A stretch of DNA of 64,000 bases from Folioceros fuciformis (taxonomy: Eukaryota): positions 1 through 64,000 of the forward strand of contig JBNGIO010005395.1 of assembly GCA_049999805.1 (NCBI GenBank), written 5' to 3'. The notes below the pieces were generated by a model. That model saw only the letters and a program-made list of their open reading frames with translations. It made no database searches and had not been told where the DNA came from. Below, in pieces: positions 35,976 through 55,357 of the stretch; the stretch's first letter is position 1; each line of letters opens with the position of its first letter. A program made the translations under genes and the position numbers.

Positions 35976-36632
35976 TGTTTGGAAAGTTCTTTTTTTATTT
36001 TGATGTTATTTGCTTGGTTTTGCCCATTCCAGCCCAAGATTGGCTATGGGAGCCTTGAGTGCGATGTAGGGGAAGAAGGAAGAGGCAGATTTGTGTAGGA
36101 GGAGGAAGGAAACGTGGTGGGTGGCCTGCACTTGGAGGGACGTTTTTTAGGGATTTGACGCCGAAACTGTGAGTCGAATTGATTTGTGTTATGTAGAGTA
36201 GTACCTAGCCCGAAATGCAAATCCGGTGTGGTTGTACCGGAGAGAAAAAGGTGGGCGGTTGGCACCCCATCTAGGCTGGGTCCTGGATCCTGGTGTCCCG
36301 GAGCGGGGAGCTTCAACTGCCGCTTTCAGGGGTGAGGGACACTCCGTGTTCACGGTAACCACACGATCGACGCTCCGGGTCCGGTTGGCCGTCCGCCCAA
36401 AGGCTCTGAGGGTGCCTAGAATTGTGCGATCCATAGCCGGCCCTGCAGCAAGCTCGGAACGCAGTGCAGGCTCAGCAAGGCCAGTTGGTGGGAGAGGGAG
36501 GGGCAGCTGGAGAGGACAGCCCGGGAGAATGGCGTGGGAGGGAGATGCGGTAGAGCATGGTGGGGCAGGCCGCAGGAGTGTGGCATGAAGGAATCGCAGG
36601 TGCGGGTTTCGGTAATCGGGCGTTTGCCGCAG

Positions 36633-39600
36633 ATGAGCGAGGCGAGGCGGGAGCGGGTGCAGGTGGTGGTTCGCTGCCGCCCGCTCTCGGACCGGGAGAT
36701 CGCCGACGGTCGGCAGAGCTGCGTGCACGTAGACCCCCACCGATGCACGGTGCAAGTTCGGGGTGGGCGGCCCGGGGAGCAGACCACCAAGCTCTTCACC
36801 TTCGACAGGACGTACGACCCTTCCTGCACGCAGCGCCAGCTTTACGACGATGTTGCACACCCCATTGTGCACAGTGTCATGTGCGGATACAACGGCACGG
36901 TGTTGGCCTACGGCCAGACTGCTTCTGGGAAGACCTTCACCATGGAAGGCTTGGAAGATCCATCCGGTAAGCCTGTGATTAGGGTTGCCATGGCTGAAGC
37001 ATGCATGCCGCTCATGGCTGCGGCATCGTGTGCAGAGATGCAAGGCATCATTCCGAATGCGTTTGAGGACATCTTTGCGCATATACAGCAGAGTCAGAGC
37101 TCAGATCACTTCCTAGTTCGGGCTTCGTATCTGGAGATCTACAATGAGGAGATTCGGGATTTGTTAGCTCCGGCAGGCACACATTCCAAGTTGGAGCTGA
37201 AGGAGAGCGCGGATGCTGGAGTGTACGTGAAGCACCTCACTTCTCTCACTGTGCACAGCGTGCCTGACATCCGTCGCCTTCTGATGGTTTCATATCTACT
37301 CCATCCCATCTTCTCCTGGTTGAGGAGGGCAGAAAGGGAGTCCAGCACTGTAGCTCTACAAAAACGTGCAATTAGGAGGTAGATGCATTCTGGCTGCTAG
37401 AGTGTCAGCGAACCCCCGGGCCCTTTCGTCTTCTCAAGGTGGACCTTTGTTGTTGGATGGAAAGAACCTCGTTTCGTTTTAGGGAATGCGGAGTGTGAGA
37501 ATTGCTACTACCCGGAGTTAGATGTTTGCATGGGGCAGGATGATAGGCAACCCAAGTCACTCTGTTTCATTGGAAGTTGCTGCTTGATGACTGCAGCCTT
37601 CTTAAATCACTGTTTCCTGCTTCAGGTGGGCAAGAAAAACAGGTCGGTTGGAGCAACGTTGATGAACCAAGATTCGTCTCGTTCACATTCAATATTCTCC
37701 GTCACTGTGGAGGCCAGTGCACGCCCTACGTCTGATTTGGATGGAGCGATGCATATTCGTGTTGGAAAGCTGAATCTTGTAAGTCCTGTCACGCTCTTCG
37801 ATTTTGCCCAGGTTTTGGACCCCCTTGGATGCTGACTGTCGAGGTAACGAAGCAGGTTGATCTGGCTGGGAGCGAGAGGTTGAACAAGACTGGAGCAACA
37901 GGGGAGAGGTTTAGAGAGCTGACCAATATTAATTGGTCTCTTTCAGCCTTAGGGAATGTCATTTCAGCTTTGGTGGATGGCAAAAGCTCTCATATTCCTT
38001 ACAGAGACTCCAAGTTGACCAGATTGCTTCAGGACTCACTTGGTGGAAACACCAGAACTGTCATGATAGCAAATATCGGCCCTGCTGATTACAACTATGA
38101 GGAGTCCATCAGTACGTTAAGATATGCTAATCGGGCCAAGAGCATAAAGAATAAGCCACGCATCAACGAAGATCCTAAAGATGCCATCCTTCGGGAATTC
38201 CAGGAGGAAATTGCGAGGTCTGGTCTCGTAAATCTAGTACATCACTGCGTTTTCTGCAGAGCACAAGAGGACAGCTGAGTGGCTAGGTTGTTGAGGTGAT
38301 GATTGGCACTTTAGGCATGCCTGTATGATGATGTTCTACATGATGTACACAGGCTTAAAGCACAGTTGGAGGCCACCAGCAGTGCGGGCGACGAAGCAGC
38401 AGCTGGTCAGGCCCTCCCCACGGAACGTGATAGTGCTGTAAGCCCTGAGCTTCTACAGCAAATCAAGGAGCAGATGCGCCGTGATATAGAACTCGAGACC
38501 TGCCTACGACAATCCATGAGTGAACAAGCAATGGCCTGCATCAAGGCTGACCTAGAGCGTAAGGCAAGACTACTTGAACCCAGGGTTCTTCATATGCTAC
38601 ATGAACTGATGTCTCTTTGGTCGAGCTGTTTGGTATCGGAAGCGATTCAAATAAGTCATGAGCTAGTCATTTGCCTGATGAAATGGGTGTGCGATTGGCT
38701 GTGATATGGACTCTATTGCTGTTGTGTTGTATCGAATTGTCCTCTGACGTGGTTTCTCTCCTCTATCTCATCCTACTTCCATTTTCTGGCTTGCTGGTGC
38801 TGACTTTTTCTGATTGGTTCGGTTCCTGTCACTTTGTTGTCCAATCTTTCACATCACCATCCCGCTCCCTCCTTCTTCCTGTTCCTTCACTTTTACAACT
38901 GCTTCTCCTGGGTGATCTGAAAGACAGATGATGGCTCGCATTGGTGCAATAATACCGACCTTTTTGCTGAATGCTAGTCCTGGCAGAAGCATCCACACAT
39001 GCCACAGATGCTCCGCAGCAGGCTCTTGTTGTACACTGTCAAGAGCTGCTGCACCGCCTCTATTGGAACAGCAAAGTCTTGCACAGCCTGGAAAAGAGCA
39101 TACAGCTCGATTCTCAGCTGCTGCGGCCGCTTTGCATGCTTTAGAACTGTCACTCCTGTGTGAAGATGACTCCGATTTTGTCCGACAAGGCCAGGAAGCC
39201 CTAGCAACAGCTTGCCTTTGTTTCTCTAAAGCTTCTGTTGCTGCTGCCCTTCCTGGTTCCCAGGTCAGCAGGGTTGGGACTAGGGAAGAGAGAAGAGTAG
39301 ATCCCTCCACAGCCAAAATTACTGAAGATAGTATCAGCAGAGATGAAGGTCCAGAACAGGAGAATTATCTTCCTGACACTCGGCCCCAGCCCGTCTCTGC
39401 TTTGGTGGGCCAATTGCTCGAAGCGATGGAAGCACATGTTCAGAGGAAGACTGAGGGTAACAGCATGGCATATACGAGGGGACTCGTGAGAGAGACTGAG
39501 GATACTGTTTCCCTCCCCTTTTCCACGTGCAACTCCCTTCTCGCCCTCCTCTCCCCTTTCCAGTCCTCTACTTCCTCTCTCCCTCCTTTCGTTGTTGCGC

Positions 39601-42019
39601 AGGAGCCCGAGCTTTCAGGTCAAACTTCGCCACATTTCGCAAGCGATAAGGCAATGCATATGTATGCGCACTTATATCCCTATGCGGGTTTCTTCGTAGA
39701 CGGGGTCACAGATGCTGGCATCCAGGTCGAAACATTGAAAAGTCCCACCTCGGATAAGGAATCACAAGTTGATGGCAATCAACCGGAATACTCTTCGTCT
39801 CCTAATGCCTGCACATTTTCAGGAGACGACGAGCAGATCAGATATAGCTCTGTGATATCGACTGTCGATGCTTCCTGTCCAGGAACTTATTTCCAGCATT
39901 CTAATGCCGTTCAGTTTAGCAACAGTGATCCTCACTTCTCAGGGTGCTTTTCCGCGCAGTACGGTGCAACGATTTCTGAGAGGGATGTACTTGAGATGTT
40001 AAGGGACATGCAGTGTGAAGGAAACTTGTCAGGAGCTTCTATGCCAGCCAAATTCATTTTTGATGACGGAGATCCTTGTCTGAATTTAGATGGGTTACCC
40101 CTGGGCGACCGAAACATGTTTTTCAGACGAGCTTCTCGCATAGAAACGATGCTGAATGTCAGCCCGCTTGAGATGCGTCAGCAGTTGCATATCCACCTGC
40201 GGATGTAGCATCAGGGGTTTTCCTTTCATGTCACATTTAAGCTGTTAAGATAGTCTGAACATAGGACTCACAGGCCAGGACAGTGACAGGAGAACTTGGA
40301 CAATTTGTTTTTTAACGATCGGTTATGTCACTGTCATTCATGAATTATGAAAGAATATATCATGCCTTATTGTTTTAACTTTTCTGCTGTTTCTGCAACA
40401 AAATTTGGCAAGTTGCATGTGTACTGATCTTGTGAGTCCGAAGTGGTTGTTGGCGTTGTTGCTGATTGGTTTTCCAGTGACTTTGTCGTCCCTTGCTAAT
40501 GACGTAGAGGTACCTAGCGTCCTCTGCACCTGATGATGATGAGGGCATGGGGACGTATGAAGGATTGCAGGCTCAACTGGAGATAGAAGCCTTGAAAGCA
40601 GAAAAGGAAAGAACAGAAGATGAAAAGCACAGGATATCTGGGCTCCTCCAACAGCAGCACAAGGAACTGCAGTCGCACTACCAGGTAACTATATGCTTTG
40701 TGCAAAGCGAGCCTCTTCTACACGCTAGAACATGACAGCGAAATGAACAGAACACAACGCTTCCCAGGCTTTGGCCAAAGAGAAAGAGGATAGGGACCTG
40801 TTAACGATCAAGCTCAAGGCCCTAGAAGAGAAACTAGTCCATGGAGAAGCCACAGACAATGCGAAGTTGATGGAGAAGGCCAGGCAACAGGAGCAAGAGC
40901 TTGCTCTTCGTGAGCAGCAGCTTCAGGAGCAGCAATACCGTGACGAAGAACGACGGAGAAAGATAGCGGAACTAGAAGTAAGGTCTCTCTTCAGAGGCAA
41001 TCCAGTGTGGTCAAAAGGCAGCATTACGATTTTGGTTGTGACAGGCGCCTGCTTATGTGCTGTGGCCCACTCATCTGAACATTCAGCAGACGTGAAACTG
41101 TAGGAAGCGCAGCTCATGGCTGAGGAGAAATGTAGCACCATGGAAGAGGACGTGGAAGTAAAAACCCGGAAGCTACGGAAGCTGATGGCACGCTACCTCC
41201 AAAGCAAGCAGGAAGTTTCAACTCTCCGAACAGAACTGCAAGACACGATTCATGAGTTCCAGCGAGAGAGGACAGATCTGTTTTTGTCACTGCGGTCTTT
41301 AGACCAGCAGCTCCAACTTAAGACTTTCATCATCGAGGTTATCACATAATTTGCAACCTCACCTCGCCCCTTTCCAGGTGTTCTTTTCATTTCTAATCTA
41401 TCACCGCAAAAAACTCTCCACTGCTGTTACACAATGTGAATGACCGCAGAACTTCATCCCAGTCGACGAAGTCCAAAAGATTACCAGACGAGTACACTGG
41501 GACGAGGAATCGGAGTCGTGGGTATTACACAGTATGTTATTGTCCATGCCATCTCCGACCGGATCAAGATCTTTCCTTACAGATGGCGTCAACCTCAAGC
41601 AGCCCCTGCAGCGACCCCCTTCGGCCACAGGAAGAAGCAGGCCCATCTGCCGCCAAGCTGCTGAAGCCATTTCGAAGGGCGACAGAGATCCTCGCTACTT
41701 GTAAGCCACGTTGCCCTTCAGCTTCACTGAGCGGGCAAAGCATGTGACACTCCTGGCCTGAGCCGTAAGCATCTAATGCTACAGGGTGGACAACATTTTG
41801 AAGTTGGAGCTAGACATGCCAGAGAGATCCACATACGACTACGATAACGCTGAAGACAGAGCAAGGGCAGAGGCAGATGCTGCCCTCGTGCTCAGCGCGT
41901 TCGATGACGATGGGCCGTATTTCTCGTACGAGTCCACCACACCTCCTGTTCGTCCGAAGTCCGCCCGCAGCAGGCATCATCCCCGACCCAGGACTGCTGG
42001 TGGATACCCAGGCAGGTAG
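36633..42019 (+). CDS. Kinesin-2 family motor (KIF3/FLA8/FLA10-like, intraflagellar transport), multi-exon
   Basis: [78 protein letters not shown]; kinesin-2 neck [28 protein letters not shown]; coiled coil; tail [13 protein letters not shown]. Confidence 0.92.
38928..40208 (+). CDS. 426-codon ORF nested in a kinesin-2 intron (alternative terminal exon or nested gene), unknown product
   Basis: Uninterrupted 1281-bp ORF preceded by a pyrimidine-rich tract and CAG|ATG; no recognised domain. Confidence 0.55.
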   Translation: MMARIGAIIPTFLLNASPGRSIHTCHRCSAAGSCCTLSRAAAPPLLEQQSLAQPGKEHTARFSAAAAALHALELSLLCEDDSDFVRQGQEALATACLCFSKASVAAALPGSQVSRVGTREERRVDPSTAKITEDSISRDEGPEQENYLPDTRPQPVSALVGQLLEAMEAHVQRKTEGNSMAYTRGLVRETEDTVSLPFSTCNSLLALLSPFQSSTSSLPPFVVAQEPELSGQTSPHFASDKAMHMYAHLYPYAGFFVDGVTDAGIQVETLKSPTSDKESQVDGNQPEYSSSPNACTFSGDDEQIRYSSVISTVDASCPGTYFQHSNAVQFSNSDPHFSGCFSAQYGATISERDVLEMLRDMQCEGNLSGASMPAKFIFDDGDPCLNLDGLPLGDRNMFFRRASRIETMLNVSPLEMRQQLHIHLRM

Positions 42020-42621
42020 GCCTTGGTCCCTTCAAAATGAAGACCCGGGCTCGAATTGTGACAGTGCGGGCATATCCACGAACAGGTGTTTAATGTCCTC
42101 CTCCCGATCTTTTTACTTTAGAGCAACTCTGTTCTTTGGTACGTCTCTCTTTAGTGCGAGTTGCCCTTCAAACAAAATTGTTACAATTTCTATAAGCCAG
42201 TTCTTCAGTTCATAGAAGATCACCGTCTTGCCAGACCCAAGACTCACAATTTTAGGGCACCTATGCCATTCTCCTGCCGCAAACACTCCACTCAGTAGTA
42301 AACCAACCATCCGAGAATACCCAATCACCGCAGATGATTCAACTCGTTCCATACGATCCACAGTCGCATCTTGCAAAACCTTAGCTACTTTGCAAGAAGG
42401 ACGTACGGAATCACAAATCAAAATCCCCCTCACACTTCTCGCAAGGATTTCCTCCTGCGATGCTAGACAGTTTCCGGCACAACTGACGTCACGACGATGC
42501 TTCGTCACCGTACGCAAACTTGCCACAACCCTACTTCAGCATCTACGCGCACTGCAAGGGCAAAGAGGTCCGGGGGACCGCCCAACCCTGAAGCTAAAAG
42601 TCACAGGAAATAATGACCTAC

Positions 42622-42850
42622 ACATGTGTGCTGCATGGTCTGTCCCAAAGAGTAATTGCGGCGACGCCACTCTCTAGGGCAATGGAATATGCTGCACTCA
42701 AACTTGGAGGCATAAAGAAACCCTAGAGTCTCAGACTGCCATCGTCAAGCAAGCTTTGATTTCTGACGTTCATGCTGAGCCTTACGGCACAAGAGCCGCC
42801 CCAATGCATGTAGGTCAGATCTGTCAAGCGTCTCATCCTCTACCAAATCA
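42622..42850 (-). ncRNA. Putative U17/snR30-type H/ACA snoRNA, copy A (intact motifs)
   Basis: Minus-strand 3' hairpin GUGCAGC-AUAUUCCAU...AGACCAU-GCAGCAC-ACA-UGU; lower stem GUGCAGCAU/AUGCAGCAC, upper stem CCUAGAGAGU/ACUCUUUGGG. 5' end approximate. Confidence 0.72.
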
Positions 42851-42917
42851 CGCACACCTGACGTAGCAACTGGGAACAGGTTAACCCTAAATCCAAAAAA
42901 CGAAAGCAACCAAAAAC

Positions 42918-43140
42918 GAACGTAACCTAAGTGGTCTGTCCCAGAGAGTTATGGGAGCGAGGTCGCTCTCCAGGGCGACGAACTTAGCAGTATCAGAATT
43001 CAGAGGCACACGAGGAGCGTCAACTTTACCAGAACTTTCAACAAACGGACTCTACTTTAGGCGTTTACGCTGAGCGGTACTGCTCAACAAGCTGCCGCTT
43101 TGCAAGAATATGACACCTATCACTATCTTTCGTCAGTAAG
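42918..43140 (-). ncRNA. Divergent U17/snR30-like copy B (m1 altered, ACA to ACG)
   Basis: Aligns with the other units; keeps AGACCA and both stems. Confidence 0.4.
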
Positions 43141-43178
43141 ATACATCTGAACCTATCCTGGGAATAACAACCAAGCAA

Positions 43179-43445
43179 AACAGTGCGCCGAATGGACGCT
43201 CCCAACGAGTCGTTGTTGCGACGCTGCCCTCCAGGACATTGGAATATCCGGCAACCGGTTCGGAAGCATGGAAGGAGTGAGAACTCCTCCAATGCCATCA
43301 ACAAACAACCACGTTCAAGCTGAGCTATACGGCACAGACAGCCGCGTCTACGCATGGAGGTGACATCTGAGCTATACGGCACAGACAGCCGCGTCTACGC
43401 ATGGAGGTGACATCTGCCAGAAGTGCCATCCTCCGTCAATCACAG
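43179..43445 (-). ncRNA. U17/snR30-like copy C, probably degenerate (m2 changed to GUCCAU, ACA to ACU, ~50-bp internal duplication)
   Basis: Very similar to copy D; direct repeat ctgagctatacggcacagacagccgcgtctacgcatggaggtgacatctg at ~43320-43417. Confidence 0.45.
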
Positions 43446-43499
43446 ACACCTGAACCTAAGCGGACAAATAACAACCCAACAACAACACCCAACAAGAAC

Positions 43500-43728
43500 T
43501 ATTGTGCGCCGCATGGTCGCTCCCAAAGAGTCATGGCAGCGACGCTGCCCTCCAGGGCGATGGAATATGTGGCTACTCGGTTCGGAGGCAAACGAGGAGC
43601 GAGAACTCCTCCAATGCCATCGACAAACAGACTATCTATGACGTTCATGCTGAGCTTTACGGCACGACAGCCGCCTCTGTGCATGCAGGTGACATCTGCC
43701 AGGAGTGCCATCCGCCGTCAGTCATCGG
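43500..43728 (-). ncRNA. Putative U17/snR30-type H/ACA snoRNA, copy D (intact motifs)
   Basis: GCCAC-AUAUUCCAU...CGACCAU-GCGGCGC-ACA-AUA; 5' hairpin ACGGCGGAUGGC/GCUGUCGUGCCGU; U/G-rich spacer follows the 3' end. Confidence 0.7.
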
Positions 43729-44171
43729 GCCAGACAGAACGCGGCGAGGCAAACGTTCAACTCACCCCTACCGCAACTCCAACTCATCTTGCCGAAGGTA
43801 AGCGGCAAGCGAAACGGAAAGCCAAGCACGAGAGTGCCATAACGAAGATTGGCAGCTCGAGCGGCTTATGTAGTGTCCAGCAACATGCCCTAACCCTAAT
43901 TTGGTAGGGAGCGCACATGTTGTTGTTCCTTTCTTCACCCTAACCGGTCGGCGTCCTTTGCGGCTGTCCCTGCTGCCATCGAGTTTTGGTAGTATAAAAC
44001 GTTCCATACACGTCAAAGATTGACAGAAATCTTGAGTTTCGTCACTGACAGGACGACAGACCAAGTGTATGTACGTACGTACGTACAAACAATATGCACA
44101 CAGCGGGAAGGAGAAGAATCGAGGATTTGGCGAGAGCAGGAACTGCAAATGCAAAGGTGAGTCTGCCGAGT

Positions 44172-47100
44172 TCACGGCGAGCTTTGATGGAGTCTGACAA
44201 GGGAAGCGTAGGATCCAGCATTGCGCTTGAGAGTGTCGTGGGAACCGAGCTCCAAGATTTTGCCATCGCTGATGACGGCGATGACGTCGGCATTCCTGAC
44301 TGTAGAAAGGCGATGAGCCACCACGATGGTGGACCTGGCGACCATGATCCGCTCCAGAGCCTCCTGCACCAGCTGCTCGGACTCGGAGTCGAGAGCGCTG
44401 GTGGCCTCGTCCAGCAGGAGGACCTTGGGGTTCTTGAGGATCACTCTGGCAATGGCGATGCGCTGCTTCTGGCCGCCGGACAGGTGACGGCCCCGCTCTC
44501 CCGCAGGAGTGTGGTAGCCCTGGGGCAGGCTGGCTACGAAGTTGTGGGCGTTGGCGGCCCTTGCTGCGGCCTCGATGTCCTCGTCCGCCACCTGGCCCTG
44601 CTTCCCGTACGCTATGTTCTCCCGGATGGAGATGTTGAAGAGGGCAGGGTCCTGGCTCACCAGCCCCAGCTGCTGCCTCAGCCACTTTAGTCGCAGCTTC
44701 CTGATGTCCACTCCGTCCAGCAGAACGTGGCCCAGGTCGGGGTCGTAGAACCTCTCCATCAGCGAGATTACTGTGGACTTGCCGCTGCCGCTTTCGCCCA
44801 CCAGAGCTACTGTCTGGCCAGGGAAAGAAGGATCCAGAGCATGGAAACGAGGTGAGCATTGGCATGGGCATGGGCAGGTGAGAGGCAAGAGAGCATGCAA
44901 GGGCAGGTGTTGTTGGAGGAGGCTTACTTGGCCTGGTTTCACTGTGAGGCAAAAATCTTGGAAGACCTGCACATCCGGGCGGGTCGGGTAGCTGAAGGAG
45001 ATGTGATGGAATTCGATGTGCCCTTTCACGTCTTTCAATATGCTTCCTGAGGTGTCGGAGGAGTCGATTTTGGAGCTCCTGTCGAGCAAGGCGAAGATAG
45101 AGTTTGCCGCTGTCTTTGCTCTTGCTATATCAGGGGCCAGCCCCATGGACTGCGCAACACCGAAGGCCGTGCAAACGATGGAGAAGAACACCTGTGCAGC
45201 AAGGTGTTTGTGTGTGAGACAGGTGTGTGAGCGCATGACCTGGTGGTGGTGTCAGGAGTGTGGTGGTCTTACGGTAAACATTTGGTTGAAAGTGGTCTTC
45301 CCTTCCCGCACAAGATGGGCACTCAGCCAAAAGATGAAGGCATTGCAGCCGTAGGTGGAGAAGCTGGAAATGGCAAGACCACTTCCACTGATCAAACCTT
45401 GGCGGATACCGCCTGCCAACGGTATTTTACACTTGCTCTGGTACAGGGAAGACACCTTGTCTTCAGCACAGAAGGAGGCCACGGTTCTGATGCTACTCAC
45501 GGCTTCATTCGCCAGTATGCTAGCGTCCTCGTACATAGCCTGGCATGTTATGAACATTAGCCCAGGAGGAATGGAGAGAGGGCACTTGTTGTGAGCGTGT
45601 GGAGGGATGTCACCTTGGAGTCCTTGCTGTGGCCCTTGAGAAGCTTGACTTGCATGTAGGTGCCGAGTCCCAAAAGGGGCAAGATGGCCAACATGGAGCT
45701 GGAGAGCAAGAAGTTGGAGAGAAAAGCAATGAGAAGACCTGTAAGCACAGCAGCTGCACTTTCCACATAAGTTGACAGAGCATCTCCAACCATGCTTCTC
45801 ATCCGTGCTGCGTCTTGGGACAGCCGAGCTCCAATGGAACCCCTGCCACCAGCAAACTAGAGATCGTGACCTGCAATCCTTGTTGACACCGGAGGATGGG
45901 GAATCTTTGTTAGGAGACTAACCCCGAGCTCTCTTTCTCGTCAAACCAGCCAACTTCTTGCTGCAGTATCTTCTCGAAGATCAACAACCTAATCCGACGC
46001 ACGAGTCCATTGCCAGCCACCGCAAATGAAAACATTTGTATGGGGCACACGAGAAAGTTTCCGCATGCAAGGACCACCAGCATGATTGCCCAGAAGCTTG
46101 CATCCTTCTTCATGTGATGAGGATCGTTTCCAAAGAAGGAGATTATGAGACGGCTGAAGATAAGCCCACACGTCGGCAACAAAGCCCCATGTACAGCAGC
46201 CGCCGCCGAACCTATCACGAACATGGGTGTCTCCGGTCTATTCAGAGCAGCAAGGCGGAGGAAGTATCTCCTCTTGGCGACAACTGTCGGCCCGGCCTCC
46301 AGATCATTGTCGGACGCAAAGTCAGCCCCAGCAGGGAGAGCTCTTGAGCAGCTGCTCAAGATAATGTTGGAGGCACTGTTGGTGCGGGTGTGGCTGTGGG
46401 AAAGGTTGCTGCTGGTTCTGCTTAACACAACATCTGCACCAGCCACGATAGTTTCCGCTTCATCACCGACGTCGTCGTCTCCAGGAGGTTCTTCCTGCAC
46501 ATTTTGATGATGAGCAAGCTGGCTGTAAGCGCCATCACTTCTGCTCAGAAGCTCAGCATGTGTCCCTGTGCAACCGTGGATGGGAACTCAGGCCAAGTGT
46601 CCAGTCTGTAAACTAGATGGAATGTTCAGAACAGAGGAAGGTGGTTACCGACCCTGTTCAACGATGGCTCCCTGATGCATCACAGCGATGTGGTCCGCAG
46701 TCCTTATGGTGGTGAATCTGTGGGCCACTATCAAGGTGGTGCGGTCGCACATGATCCTTTCCAGAGCCTGTTGAACCACCCTCTCGGAAGCAGCATCCAG
46801 AGCACTGGTGGCTTCATCCAGGAGCAGGATCCGAGGATTTTTCAAGATAACCCTTGCAATAGCTATCCTCTGCTTCTGTCCTCCAGACAGTTGGACTCCA
46901 TTTTCTCCCACCTGCGTGTTGTAACCCTGCACGTACACGCATAATATTGCTTCTTTTAGCACCGGAGCAAGAGAAGAAAGCATAATTCCATCCCTTCCCA
47001 CGGAGTCCACCGGAAAATTCACCTGTGGCATTTTGTCGATGAAGGTTGCAGCGTTGGCAAGCCTGGCCGCAGCCATGATCTCCTCACCAGTGGCGCCATC

Positions 47101-49524
47101 CTTCCCGTAGGCAATGTTCTCCCCGATGGTAGTCCCGAAGAGAACAGCCTCCTGACTGACCAACCCGATCTGCTGGCGCAACCATCCCACGTTCATGGTC
47201 TTGATATCGATAGCATCCAGGAGCACCTCGCCTCCTTGCGGATCGTAGAACCTCTCAATCAGCTGAATGACAGTGGACTTGCCGCTGCCACTGCCCCCCA
47301 CCAAAGCAGCGGTGCAGCCGGCGGGAATCTGAAACGAAAGCTTGGAGAAGACGGCAACCTCAGGCCGAGCCGGGTACGAAAAGTCCACATCGCGCAACCG
47401 GATGTCGCCCCTGACGCTGGCAACCGAGATCCCGGCCGGGTCGGCCGCGTCGATCTCAGGCCTGCGGTTGATGAGCTCGAAGAGCTTGTAAGCGGCCGCC
47501 TGCCCTCCTGCGAAGGTGCTGAAGCAGAGGGACGCCTGGCCCAGGGCGCTGCCAACAACGTGGTCTTTGAGCTTAGTTCAGGGTCATTATTCCCGCAGCC
47601 CATGGATGGGCAGTCCAATCGCAAATGCAAAGCACTAGTCCAATTTCCCTTCCCTCTGAGGCTCGCTCACCTACCACCGATGACGATAGAGAAGAAGACG
47701 GTGATGATGGTGCCGCCGGTAGCGCTTCCATTGACAGCCAACCTGGAGCCGTACCAGAGGGACAGGGCGAAGGAGCCGTAGGCGAAGAAGCCGACCAAGC
47801 CAGCCCCGAAGCCCGACGCCAGGCCCTGCCGCACGCCCACCTTGTACGCCTTCCTCAGCGCCCTGTCGTAGGCGCCCACCGTCCGCTTCTCGCCCGTGAA
47901 GGACATCACCTACAACACCATCTCTGCGACGCTGCAATCAGCTCAAGTTCCTGCTGCCCTTGCAAGCCCCCAGAGCTGCGGATGCTTCATGGCTGGCAGA
48001 GAATGCCTACCGTTCTGATGGCCCCAATCACCTCCACCACCACCCTGCCCGCATCACTGTAGGAGGCCTGCCCGGAGGTGTTGAGCTTGGAGATCTGCGA
48101 CGCCGTGGTGGCCCCAAACGTGACGATGAGCGGAATGGTGGCCAGCAACACCAGGCTCAGCTTCCAGCTCTTGGCGAAGGCCAGCGCCATGCCGCCCACG
48201 AACGTGGTCATGTACTCGATCACCTTGCCCACCTGTGCCGGCGTCAGTTAAGTTGGTTAACCTGGTCACCCACCCACCCCCCACTCCCCTGTCCGGGGCC
48301 TGGGACTCTACCGTTGTTTACCTTTTCCCCCGTTGCCCGCTGGATGGAGGCCGTGTCCCCGGACATCCTGCCAAGAACCTCCCCACTCGTGAGCTCCCTG
48401 TCGAAGAAGGACACGTCCTGCCGAAGCAGCGCCTTCAGGTACTCGCTCCTGATGCGAGCCGCCTGCCTCTCGCCCGAGCACATCCAAAACGCCACCTCTG
48501 CCGGATGCACAACATCATCCAACATGTCTGCCTCATCCACAGTGACTCTTAAGCCCTACGAGCAAAATGCGGGTGATTGGGCATACCACAATATCCGCCG
48601 ATTGCAGCTGCCATGGCCACAAACACGTAGTGCACAGTTGCCTGCACCGCACGACATGGAGCAATTCAATCAAGCTCAGCTGGAAGGAAATCATGTTGCA
48701 ACACGCAACGACGTTCACACTGCACCCAGCGACGGCCGATCGTGCTCACATACCTTGGAGATTTTTGCGACCAGGGCATGGCCGTCGATGGGGGTCTTGG
48801 CCTTCACGTCTCCGAAGGCGTCGGTGACGGTCCCAAACACAAGCACCACCATGATCTGGCTGAGCCCGTTGATGACAGCCCCGGCGGATCCCAAGGCCAT
48901 GAGCGCGAAATCCAGGCTGTCCGCGAAGGCGAACAGGCGGTAGAAGGGGGCGGAGCCAGGAGAAGGTGCGGCCTCGAGCTTGGACGCCAGCCGCTTCGGG
49001 GCGGCCACGTCGTGCAAGCCGGGGAAGGGGCCATTCAGAGTGCTCAGAGCCAGGCCCAGCGCCCCCAGGAGCTTGCTTTTGGGGGACTTGGCAGAATTGA
49101 TGCCCTCGCCATCGGATGCGGCATCCGTTTGCAACAGCACCGGCTTGATGGACCGGATCTCGCTCAACACCTGCTCCACCAGCGGGGTGTGCGAGATTTC
49201 AATGTCGATGAAGCTGCCGTTCGTAGTGTCGGTGTCGTCCCCGCTGCTGCTGTTGGAACCAGAACCATGCTCCTGCTGCTGTCGCTTCTCCCTCGGCTTC
49301 CCGCAACTGTCCAGGACCAGAGCGTCTTCTCCTCCTGAGACCCACTCGTCGGGCTTCCTGCAACTGTCCACAACCACTAGCGCGTCTTCTGCTACTGGAA
49401 CCTCCTCGTCGGCCAGAGGCTGCGATTCTGCTGCGACCGCGTACTGCTGGATGTGAGTTTCGAGTGTCAAAGCTTGGTTGCTGCTGTTGTCACGCTCGGC
49501 ACCAGCCCCATTACCATCATTCAT
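44172..49524 (-). CDS. Full-length ABCB (P-glycoprotein/MDR) transporter, multi-exon
   Basis: TMD1 ([25 protein letters not shown]), NBD1 ([33 protein letters not shown]), TMD2, NBD2 ([17 protein letters not shown]); includes a 55-nt exon at ~48587-48641. Start at 49524 is inferred. Confidence 0.95.
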
Positions 49525-52756: not shown

Positions 52757-55357
52757 ATGTTTTCTGGCTTGCAGTGCAGCCAGGGGCGTGGCAGGCTTTG
52801 GGGGACAGGGTTGTGGACGACCTCTCCCAGAGAGGTGGATCGCTGGATGAGGTAATCCAGGCGCCTTCGGATTTGTTCTCTTATGGAGGTGCTTGGGCTT
52901 CATGGGTTCTGAGGCGGTGCGTGAATCTGTACAGCTGGGGAATTGGAATGCTTATTTTGCGGATTTCATTCGGAGAACAGAAAGGAACTCCACGTGGATT
53001 GGGTCGGAAAATGCAGGAAGCTTGCTGGCATCACGACTTGCTGGACTTGGGGCATTCCATCGGCCTGGTTTCGACCCTGGTGGGTTGCGAGAGGGCTCTG
53101 GCAGGTTTTCTTCCAGCTTATTTGTTTCTTAGTAATTTTCGGCAGCTGTGTTGTGTTGTAGCGTGAGTCGAAGGAACGGCTGAGTTAACGTGACGGCTCT
53201 CACCATTGCAGAGGTGCCATTGAGGAAGAAGTGCTAGTGCCTGAAGCTTGGAATGAGCTGTGCGAAGAGAAGGGTCTGTATTGGGCCGTTGAAGTGTTAG
53301 ACATCCTGGTTCAGCAATTCGGATCTGAAGTTCCTGCATCTTTCTTCTATTGTGTTCTCAAAGGGTGCATCGCGCAGAAGGATTTGGCTGTTGGCAAACG
53401 TGCGCATGCCCTTGCTCATACTAGTGGGTACGAGTCCAATAGTTTCTTGGCCAACCATATAATCCGGATGTACTCTTCCCATGGCAAACTGGAGGAGGCA
53501 ATGCTAGTGTTTGATAGGGTGGCTGTGCCCAGCATTTTCATGTGGTTTTCAGTTATATCAGTACATGCTGAGCAGGGACTTCCAGCACAAGCCCTCAAAC
53601 TGTATGGACGGATGCAACAGGCGTCAGTGAAGCCGAATAACTACGTGTTTGTGGCGGCCCTCAAGGCATGTGTGAATGCACGAGATTTGGCATCTGGCAA
53701 GAAAGTGCATGCTGATGTCTTGGGACAGTTACTTGAGGCCAATGTTTTTGTAGGCAGCAGCCTGGTGGACATGTATGTCAAATGTGGTAGCCTAGAGGAT
53801 GCTCAGGCAGTGTTTGACAGACTACCTGCCAAGAATGTGGTGACATGGAATGCCTTGCTTGGTGGATATGCAGATCGAGGGCTCTGTCACGAAGCCCTTG
53901 TTCTACATGCTAAGATGCAGGAAGAAGGCCAAACCGCAGCTAATCGTGTCACATATATGTCCCTTCTGAAGGCCTGTGGCAGCATCGGAGCACTGCATGA
54001 GGGCAGGCAACTTCATTCCGAAATTCGAGGGTCGGAGGTGGAGGCCGATGTTACGGTTGGAAACTGCCTGGTGGATATGTATGCTAAATGTGGCAGCCTA
54101 GAAGATGCTCGCAGAGTATTTGACAGTATGCCGACAAGAGATGTAGTCACGTGGACATCTATGATCGGAGGATATGCTGAGCATGGGCTCGGGCAAGAAG
54201 CCCTGAATATTTACAGCTGTATGCAAGTGGATGGCATCACACCAGCCAACCGCGTGACCTTTCTATGCCTTCTGAGAGCATGCGCTGATGTGGGAGCATT
54301 GCATCAGGGGAAGCTGCTTCACTGTCAAATACAAGAGCAAGGTCTGGAAGCGGATGTGGTTGTTGGTGGTAGCCTAGTAGACATGTATGCAAAATGTGGC
54401 AGCTTAGAGAATGCACGCAAAGTGTTTGACAGACTACCCAGACGAAATGTGGTGACGTGGACTGCGTTGTTGAATGGCTACGGCCAAGCTAATGATAGCC
54501 AAATGGCAATGCAGTGTTTCCAAGCGATGCAGAGGCATGGGGTTGAGCCTGATGAGTTCACTTTCACATGTCTTCTTGTGGCTTGCAGTCATGAAGGCCT
54601 TGTGTCTGAGGGTCAGCAGTTTTTCAGGATGATGGTGGAACAGGGCATTAGGCCCAATGTGTATCACTTTAATTGTATGGTTGATCTTCTTGGACGGGCT
54701 GGGCGGTTACATGAGGCAGAACAGACGTTGCGATCTATGCCATATCACGATGACGTTGTAGGGTGGTTATCTTTGCTAAATGCCTGCAAAACTCATGGTG
54801 ATGTAGATTGTGGAAGGCGATGTTTTGACCATATTACCCAGACTGATCCTCAGAATTCAGCTGCCTATGTGCTGTTGGGTGACATATATTCCAAGGCTGG
54901 TAGGTGGAGGGATGTGGCAAGGATAGAATACTTGAGGAAGTCTGTAGGCGCTTACAAAATGCCCGCGAGGGCATGGATTGAGGTTAACGACAAGGTTCAT
55001 ACCTTCGTTGTCGGAGAAGACAGAGACGATGTTACCCTCAGGATCAGGAGTGCGAATTTGCGGTTGGAGCAGGATAATGGCGGTGAACCACGCACAGACT
55101 TGGTGCTGAAGCAAGATTACAACGAGAAGGAAGATCCCTTGTGTGGTCATGCCGAGAAACTGGCATTGGCGTTTGGTCTGCTGAATACTCCACATGGCCA
55201 AACTTTGATAGTTACTAAGAATCTCCGAATGTGCAACAATTGTCATGATGGCACCAAGATCATGTCTAAAATTGAGAAACGTGAGATAATCGTCAGAGAT
55301 GCACATCGCGTACACCATTTTGTTGATGGATTCTGTTCTTGTGGAGATAGACATTGA
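52757..55357 (+). CDS. PLS-class PPR protein with E1/E2 and a DYW:KP-type (DRH-ending) deaminase-like domain; probable exons 52757-52851 and 53212-55357
   Basis: 14 P/L/S motifs, E1/E2, PARAWIEV, LCGHAEKLALAFGL, KNLRMCNNCH, HHFVDGFCSCGDRH. The 5' exon is inferred from splice phase. Confidence 0.93.

Follow-up and report, generated by a model that had tools for sequence, protein, structure and literature searches.

U17/snR30 small nucleolar RNA (snoRNA) is needed for making 18S ribosomal RNA (rRNA), and the part of the plant literature open to searching describes it as not yet found in plants. The first 64,000 nucleotides (nt) of contig JBNGIO010005395.1 from Folioceros fuciformis (assembly GCA_049999805.1), hereafter the window, whose source we take to be a land plant, contain four tandem units on the minus strand, which raise the question of whether this RNA is encoded here. 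The original prediction, made from the letters of the window, had read them as four U17/snR30-like H/ACA snoRNA genes. Our analysis indicates that the array is likely a homotypic tandem cluster of H/ACA snoRNA genes and the plant orthologue of U17/snR30, composed of two apparently intact copies (A and D) and two decayed ones (B and C).

The array spans 42622-43730 and consists of four head-to-tail units of about 230 nt, as traced by strand reading, direct-repeat families and a four-way alignment with a mean column identity of 68%. The anchor spacings are 295, 250 (+47) and 283 (+47), and the three periods together cover 875 bp, or 292 bp on average. Copies A and D carry boxes resembling m1 and m2, the two motifs of the U17/snR30 family, ahead of an ACA box. 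In minus-strand order, the features are as follows.

43500-43730, minus strand: copy D, apparently intact, 231 nt, 5' end uncertain (alignment, Rfam, composite motif)
43560-43568, minus strand: m1-like box AUAUUCCAU of copy D (motif match)
43513-43519, minus strand: m2-like box of copy D, CGACCAU; 7 nt separate it from ACA at 43503-43505
43451-43499, minus strand: spacer between D and C, 51% U and 33% G (composition)
43175-43450, minus strand: copy C, decayed (strand reading, alignment)
43147-43179 and 42851-42921, minus strand: the other two spacers (composition)
42918-43146, minus strand: copy B, decayed (strand reading, alignment)
42622-42850, minus strand: copy A, apparently intact, 229 nt, 5' end uncertain (Rfam, fold, composite motif)
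42682-42690, minus strand: m1-like box AUAUUCCAU of copy A (motif match)
42635-42641, minus strand: m2-like box of copy A, AGACCAU; 7 nt separate it from ACA at 42625-42627

By blastn, copy D is 73.6% identical to A, 80.6% to C and 70.4% to B, and a check for a dispersed repeat found no copy of the unit outside the array within the 64 kb. The three spacers contain 84%, 69% and 73% U+G. No frame is open throughout all four units, and none of the four open reading frames that overlap the array or its flank has a Pfam match. The diverged minus-strand units with a period of about 300 bp, the U/G-rich spacers, the lack of a conserved frame and the placement between a kinesin and an ABCB gene had all been foreseen, and all were recovered. 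The kinesin gene is on the plus strand, and the array faces the 3' end of the ABCB gene, which is on the minus strand.

The 3' hairpins of copies A and D read AUAUUCCAT ... (A/C)GACCAT, then 7 nt, then ACA, exactly as originally claimed. The composite pattern ATATTCC N40-60 ACCAT N7 ACA has two matches in the window, each 66 nt long, one in A (42625-42690) and the other in D (43503-43568), and was found in 0/100 shuffles. Since A and D are paralogous, the pair counts as one independent event. The m1-like boxes of the two copies are identical at 9/9 letters. In copy B, CUAAGUUCG stands in place of m1, and ACG occupies the ACA position (42921-42923). Copy C has CGUCCAU as its m2, ACU at the ACA position (43182-43184) and an exact internal tandem duplication of 47 nt (43320-43416). 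Given that the ACA box is gone and one or both motifs are lost, B and C are probably pseudogenes. The count of four genes is therefore an overstatement, as only A and D keep ACA and both motifs.

Among the 14 species compiled in Table 1 of PMC7601244, none of them a plant, m1 is AUAUUCCU followed by A, U or G (14/14) and m2 is invariantly AAACCAU (14/14). The first seven letters of AUAUUCCAU are those of all 14 entries, and the last two differ. The m2-like boxes match AAACCAU at 6/7 letters in copy A (AGACCAU) and at 5/7 in copy D (CGACCAU). According to PMC2664660, the distance from the element to the ACA box downstream of it is an invariant 7 nt throughout the family, and it is likewise 7 nt in both A and D. 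The same paper describes 6-bp helices of m1 and m2 with two sites, rm1 (GGAAU...) and rm2, in expansion segment 6 (ES6) of 18S rRNA, and reports that the pairing of Trypanosoma brucei snR30 is kept through compensatory changes. By analogy with T. brucei, which shows this, the family would be defined by pairing capacity rather than by letters.

The family model in Rfam is SNORA73 (RF00045; gathering score, 74 bits). When all 4227 families were run over the whole window, SNORA73 on copy A was the only match at E≤1 (20.1 bits, E 0.88). Copy A at full length again scored 20.1 bits in a search of 1.8 kb (E 0.025), and its 3' hairpin scored 26 bits in a search of 1.7 kb (E 5e-4); these searches count as targeted, because the family had been named beforehand. 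The copy A 3' hairpin aligns with few gaps, and both the basal and the upper stem, m1, m2 and ACA fall within the alignment. No family outscored SNORA73 on the 3' hairpin of copy D either (11.9 bits, E 0.31). Copies B and C gave no SNORA73 match, and the matches obtained were confined to the minus strand.

RNAalifold on the four copies produced a conserved leader of about 27 nt and three hairpins, in the order hairpin 1, a 14-column hinge, hairpin 2, a 6-nt linker, the 3' hairpin and ACA. Copies A and D are identical at 48/58 positions in hairpin 1, 27/49 in hairpin 2, 10/11 in the m1 loop strand, 29/36 in the upper part of the 3' hairpin and 7/9 in the m2 strand, in agreement with the U17 picture of a variable 5' domain and a conserved 3' domain. 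A U17-type 3' hairpin, drawn by hand with an 8-bp basal stem, a loop and upper stems of 8 bp and 5 bp, showed pairing in 84.5% of the cells, as compared to 37-46% with the partners slid. Its fold in copy A has a z of -2.43, with 1/200 shuffles as good, and that in copy D a z of -1.41. The U17-type structure is thus compatible with the data, and unproven by covariation.

As modelled, each unit would have three hairpins, of which the 5' and the 3' are conserved and the internal one is variable; a short hinge with a degenerate H-like box follows the first of them, and ACA follows the last. This is the layout described for snR30/U17. The hexamer right after hairpin 1 is AGAAAU in copy A and AUAGAU in copy D, and neither copy has a canonical H box (ANANNA) directly after hairpin 1; the original prediction had likewise been unable to place one. 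According to PMC7601244, the U17 H box is dispensable for the formation of the ribonucleoprotein (RNP) in vitro.

Pairing with 18S rRNA was judged on proxy sequences, which may differ from the host's own 18S. The seed-plant-type proxies were 74 contaminant contigs (L001-L074) recovered from prokaryote assemblies through a 20-nt plant 18S motif, and 66 of the 74 stretches reach far enough upstream to show rm1. One metagenome scan supplied two contigs of a non-seed-like type, L075 and L076, and among viral contigs the motif had 0 matches. The 74 contigs are labelled as bacteria or metagenome-assembled genomes, and their seed-plant-type 18S rDNA is evident plant contamination. In the seed-plant-type stretches, rm1 is GCAUGGGAUAAC in 66/66 and rm2 is UGGCCU in 65/66, with UGACCU in the remaining one. 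L076 has GCAUGGAAUAAC at rm1 and UGGCCU at rm2, and L075, which spans the rm2 part only, also has UGGCCU there.

The m1 stretch UAUUCCAU pairs at 8/8 positions with AUGGAAUA of L076, which occurs a single time in this 6.4-kb contig, at ES6 rm1 (18S position ~787), with UGGCCU 28 nt on. The proposed complementarity of m1 to the ES6 tract is thereby supported on this proxy, at a site unique in its locus. With AUGGGAUA of the seed-plant type, m1 forms 8 pairs including one G.U, in 66/66 stretches. The two unpaired 18S letters 5' of the m1 helix at the proxy rm1 are, by eye, G and C; as neither is a U, there is no pseudouridylation target at this site. In the case of m2, CGACCA of copy D pairs with the proxy UGGCCU at 4/6 positions, AGACCA of copy A at 5/6, and the canonical AAACCA would pair at 4/6. 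Judged by the letters, the A-to-G at m2 position 2 would be the change that plant rm2 requires, since it stands opposite the C of UGGCCU; the second change is missing. The original prediction had deduced from AGACCA a UGGUCU target in this organism, whereas rm2 is UGGCCU in 65/66 seed-plant-type stretches and in 2/2 metagenome contigs, so that UGGUCU is only a predicted site of the host.

Other short complementarities were noted around these sites. The small ES6 hairpin between rm1 and rm2 contains UGGUC in L076 (4806-4815) and also in L075; this stretch would pair perfectly, over 5 bp, with the GACCA core of m2 and could be a candidate alternative m2 site; seed-plant-type 18S mostly has CGGUC or CGAUC there. 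In the hinge of copy A, AAGCUUGCUU (42747-42756, minus strand) is a perfect 10-nt complement of L076 18S positions 758-767, some 20 nt upstream of rm1; copy D lacks it, and such matches are common by chance. Hairpin 2 of copy C, which lacks ACA, holds a second rm1-complementary stretch, UUCCAUGCU (43264-43272, minus strand), a 9-nt complement of AGCAUGGAA in the proxy rm1 region.

The neighbouring genes and the RNA contig over the array are listed below.

36420-37382, plus strand: kinesin motor (Pfam)
41444-41704, plus strand: last kinesin exon, with the stop at 41704 (read from the frame)
44172-47577, minus strand: full ABCB-type transporter (Pfam)
44172-45251, minus strand: last large ABCB exon, upstream of the array on the same strand (ABC_tran, 1.3e-32)
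53189-55357, plus strand: intron-less PPR protein of 722 aa with an E motif and a DYW deaminase domain (Pfam)
41477-43349, without strand: X1 RNA contig of 1873 nt, depth 22.8, 0 differences (contig match)

The kinesin frame is carried on across GT..AG introns by X1 contigs, and its last exon encodes a peptide that we take to be the kinesin-2 tail motif. Given that the kinesin stop lies at 41704 and that the ABCB frame stops at 44172, with the end of its RNA contig at 44043, the array is located in an intergenic gap of 2.5 kb, downstream of ABCB on the ABCB strand and convergent with kinesin. Among named proteins, those most similar to the ABCB exon were ABCB proteins of angiosperms, at about 55-60% identity, which did not narrow down the source further. 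A (GTAC)5 microsatellite at 44067-44086, just 3' of the ABCB stop, is the source of a chance mir-297 match. Farther away, in this window of 49.3% G+C, the PPR-DYW protein at 53189-55357 is of the organellar RNA-editing factor type.

Three contig sets, X1, X2 and X3, are presumed to be RNA. In the flanking genes, X1 contigs jump over four intervals bounded by GT..AG or CT..AC, and because of these four joints X1 is taken to hold spliced RNA. X2 and X3 derive from other organisms of the same study, and stretches that their contigs leave uncovered are uninformative. Within the array, the X1 depth per bin is 16-31, as compared to 3.7-9.6 in the kinesin contigs and 5.7-6.4 in the ABCB contigs; the array is therefore transcribed above the level of both neighbours. 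The 1873-nt contig starts in the last kinesin exon and ends in the 47-nt duplication of copy C, where a break would be expected of an assembler.

The matches of X2 and X3 to copy D are limited to 43511-43568/9, from m1 through m2 (5 differences in 58-59 nt), and those to copy A to 42625-42656, from the upper stem through ACA (2 differences in 32 nt). Beyond ACA, the X2 contigs continue with unrelated letters. As far as the letters go, this restriction to the 3' hairpin is the pattern expected of a U17-type 3' domain. At 44446-44689, the ABC ATPase part of the ABCB gene is matched with 90-95% likeness by X3 contigs of high depth (213 and 259), which probably represent other ABC genes of the X3 organism.

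Upstream sequences offered no further guidance. The small nuclear RNA-type upstream element had 54 matches in the window, as compared to 53 expected, and none beside the array; telo-box-like motifs were likewise at chance level (15 in the window vs 11.35 expected). A one-mismatch telo-box-like TAACCCTAA (plus strand) occurs at 42882-42890, some 35 nt upstream of copy A, and again at 43891-43899, some 165 nt upstream of copy D; the pair is at chance level and was not used as evidence.

In the mechanism that we propose, the array would be transcribed from the minus strand as a single precursor, which would be trimmed to RNAs of about 205-230 nt with their 3' ends 3 nt past ACA. The m1 and m2 loop strands would then pair transiently with the two ES6 sites, about 28 nt apart, of the pre-18S rRNA. 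The RNP would thus act as a folding chaperone permitting the early cleavages that yield 18S rRNA, and would not guide pseudouridylation.

Known U17/snR30 genes lie in introns or occur as a single gene, and the array differs from them in being a homotypic tandem cluster. In their architecture, the units are like vertebrate U17 and yeast snR30: they are of the H/ACA type and of about 200-230 nt, the vertebrate size class, with 5', internal and 3' hairpins, with m1 and m2 in the 3'-hairpin loop, on its 5' and its 3' strand, respectively, and with m2 placed 7 nt before ACA. The upper and basal stems of copy A align to the Rfam U17 consensus. In contrast, the array m1 ends in AU, whereas that of known members ends in UA, UU or UG; the array m2 is AGACCAU or CGACCAU in place of the invariant AAACCAU; and the units have no canonical H box and score far under the Rfam gathering threshold. 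T. brucei snR30, as described in PMC2664660, is a precedent for a deviant recognition motif with pairing kept by changes in 18S. However, it is m1 that is altered in T. brucei, with 18S compensation documented, whereas in the array it is m2, and compensation in the host is only predicted. Plant snoRNAs in polycistronic gene clusters are described in PMC7464842. The array resembles these clusters in its head-to-tail units, in its short U-rich spacers and in RNA that covers the spacers too, but differs in that a single snoRNA is repeated in all four units, two of which are decayed.

Several observations weigh against the assignment to U17/snR30. At gathering thresholds, Rfam has 0 matches in the window; the SNORA73 scores of 20-26 and 11.9 bits are far under 74, and the E-value in the untargeted scan of the whole window is just 0.88. 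The m2 of both A and D deviates from a motif that is invariant in 14/14 species, and the pairing of the copy A m2 with the proxy UGGCCU has a central A.C mismatch, making m2-rm2 the weakest link of the assignment. Complementarity to 18S over 8-mers arises by chance at about 6 matches per unit, so the m1 match counts not for its length but because it falls on the orthologous rm1 site in both intact copies. The 3' hairpin shows no significant covariation, with 3/21 pairs changed on both sides and 215/500 shuffles equal, and the whole-unit folds are unremarkable (z -1.87 and -1.13). Past hairpin 1, copy A has AAAUCA two letters further on, and copy D has no canonical ANANNA hexamer. Two of the four copies are decayed. 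The X1 contigs represent assembled coverage without strand, ends or RNA size, and in the 1873-nt contig the kinesin 3' end is joined to A, B and a portion of C. The original prediction thus fared unevenly on these points: its likeness to U17/snR30 held in that SNORA73 is the sole family at E≤1 and the 7-nt spacing is kept, but not at the gathering score; its Rfam check was answered by the 3' hairpins of A (26 bits, E 5e-4) and D (11.9 bits), but by neither B nor C; its stems that differ and still pair were found as pairing, but only weakly as two-sided changes; and the check by RNAalifold returned three hairpins without significant covariation.

These observations leave room for other explanations, which were weighed against the U17/snR30 assignment. 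A lineage-specific H/ACA family, orphan or guiding pseudouridylation, that has no orthology to U17/snR30 and resembles it at m1 and m2 partly by convergence would account for Rfam scores that reach at most a third of the gathering threshold, for the departure of m2 from the motif invariant in 14/14 species and for its central mismatch with all of the 18S proxies; the distance of about 16 nt from the upper-stem base to ACA, measured by eye, also suits an ordinary guide pocket. However, the SNORA73 alignment reaches past m1 and m2 into the upper and basal stems, the spacing of exactly 7 nt recurs in both intact copies, and the unpaired G and C at the proxy rm1 offer no U for a guide to modify, and we regard such a family as unlikely.

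The array might also consist of former snoRNA genes, a tandem repeat in decay that has no functional copy, with the functional U17 located elsewhere. The loss of ACA in B (ACG) and C (ACU), the 47-nt duplication in C and the mere 11.9 bits of copy D would fit such decay, and the search for copies covered the 64-kb window. Nevertheless, although A and D share only 73.6% identity overall, both have retained ACA, the spacing of 7 nt, the core of m2 and an m1 that is the same at 9/9 letters; exactly those parts are kept in the RNA contigs of other organisms; and the RNA depth of the array is above that of both neighbours, which renders complete decay improbable. It is very improbable that the array holds no RNA genes of its own and is a long 3' untranslated region or read-through of kinesin (plus strand) or ABCB (minus strand), or else a passively transcribed satellite or transposon fragment. 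Although the 1873-nt contig runs on from the last kinesin exon, the coverage is strandless, no small nuclear RNA-type upstream element lies near the array and the telo-box-like motifs stay at 15 vs 11.35 expected, the depth of that contig is 22.8, as compared to 3.7-9.6 in the other kinesin contigs and 5.7-6.4 in ABCB. In addition, no further copies exist within the 64 kb, the cross-species matches are limited to the 3' hairpin and end at ACA, and the match to an H/ACA family model is specific and on the minus strand only. A U17/snR30-type snoRNA cluster thus remains the favoured interpretation of the array.

If this interpretation holds, the question extends to other plants. The original prediction compared the units with HID1, which it described as a 236-nt land-plant RNA with a four-hairpin layout. 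In PMC8053127, the hid1 T-DNA line is described as disrupting a polycistronic cluster of HID1, SnoR39BYa, SnoR21.1 and SnoR149. PMC2875012 gives the clusters snoR158a/snoR39BYa/snoR21a/snoR149 and snoR158b/snoR39BY/snoR21b; according to its Table 1, AtsnoR158a/b are box H/ACA RNAs of 226 nt, target unknown, in two copies on chromosome 2. Since the two cluster descriptions join up, we infer that HID1 is AtsnoR158a. In agreement with this, AT2G35747 (HID1) is a snoRNA in the Araport11 annotation. In PMC2875012, snoR158 is one of the orphan snoRNAs for which other plants have orthologues, and Table 1 of that paper has a single further Arabidopsis orphan of that size, snoR159 (225 nt). One would expect a plant U17 to show such traits: an H/ACA RNA that is long and conserved, counts as an orphan and has a paralogue. 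As summarized in a 2023 review, the conservation of HID1 reaches down to moss and is driven by two structured snoRNA-like domains; HID1 is presented there as a chromatin-associated PIF3 regulator and not as an rRNA-processing factor. PMC6095000 contained nothing on HID1 structure, and a mention of 'snoR158' in a fungal genome paper was rejected as a locus tag.

By analogy, the array units and HID1 (AtsnoR158a) might form one family, the missing plant U17/snR30, a suggestion that we put forward tentatively and hold to be somewhat doubtful. The units, at 229-231 nt with an ACA box, resemble the 226-nt AtsnoR158 as compared by description only; like that orphan, they have no guide-type target at the proxy rm1, for that site only; and two of their three hairpins are conserved, as are two snoRNA-like domains in HID1. 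In contrast, the AtsnoR158 clusters include the C/D snoRNAs snoR39BY, snoR21 and snoR149, and none was detected by the array: no C/D snoRNA family matched at a credible E-value in 41000-44100 or at E≤1 in the window, the presence of Rfam models for snoR39BY, snoR21 and snoR149 not having been checked for. Were HID1 a U17/snR30 RNA, m1 and m2 of seed plants would have drifted along with the changed ES6 sites GGGAUA and UGGCCU, which would explain the failure of motif searches. The photomorphogenesis phenotype of hid1 would then be secondary: a snoRNA for 18S processing would be lost only in part, its paralogue snoR158b acting as a buffer.

No report of a plant U17 was found in the searchable literature; supplements and subscription journals lay outside this scope, so an earlier report is possible. 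The 2020 snR30/U17 review (PMC7601244) contains 0 occurrences of 'plant' or 'Arabidopsis' and lists no plant, and the main text of the 2016 census of plant snoRNA families (PMC5122169) contains 0 occurrences of U17, snR30 or SNORA73. A plant sequence with recognisable m1 and m2 boxes would therefore provide a seed for covariance-model searches across land plants. The array further yields a sharp prediction on ES6 pairing, and it offers a concrete test of whether HID1, known as a long noncoding RNA, may be an rRNA-processing snoRNA.

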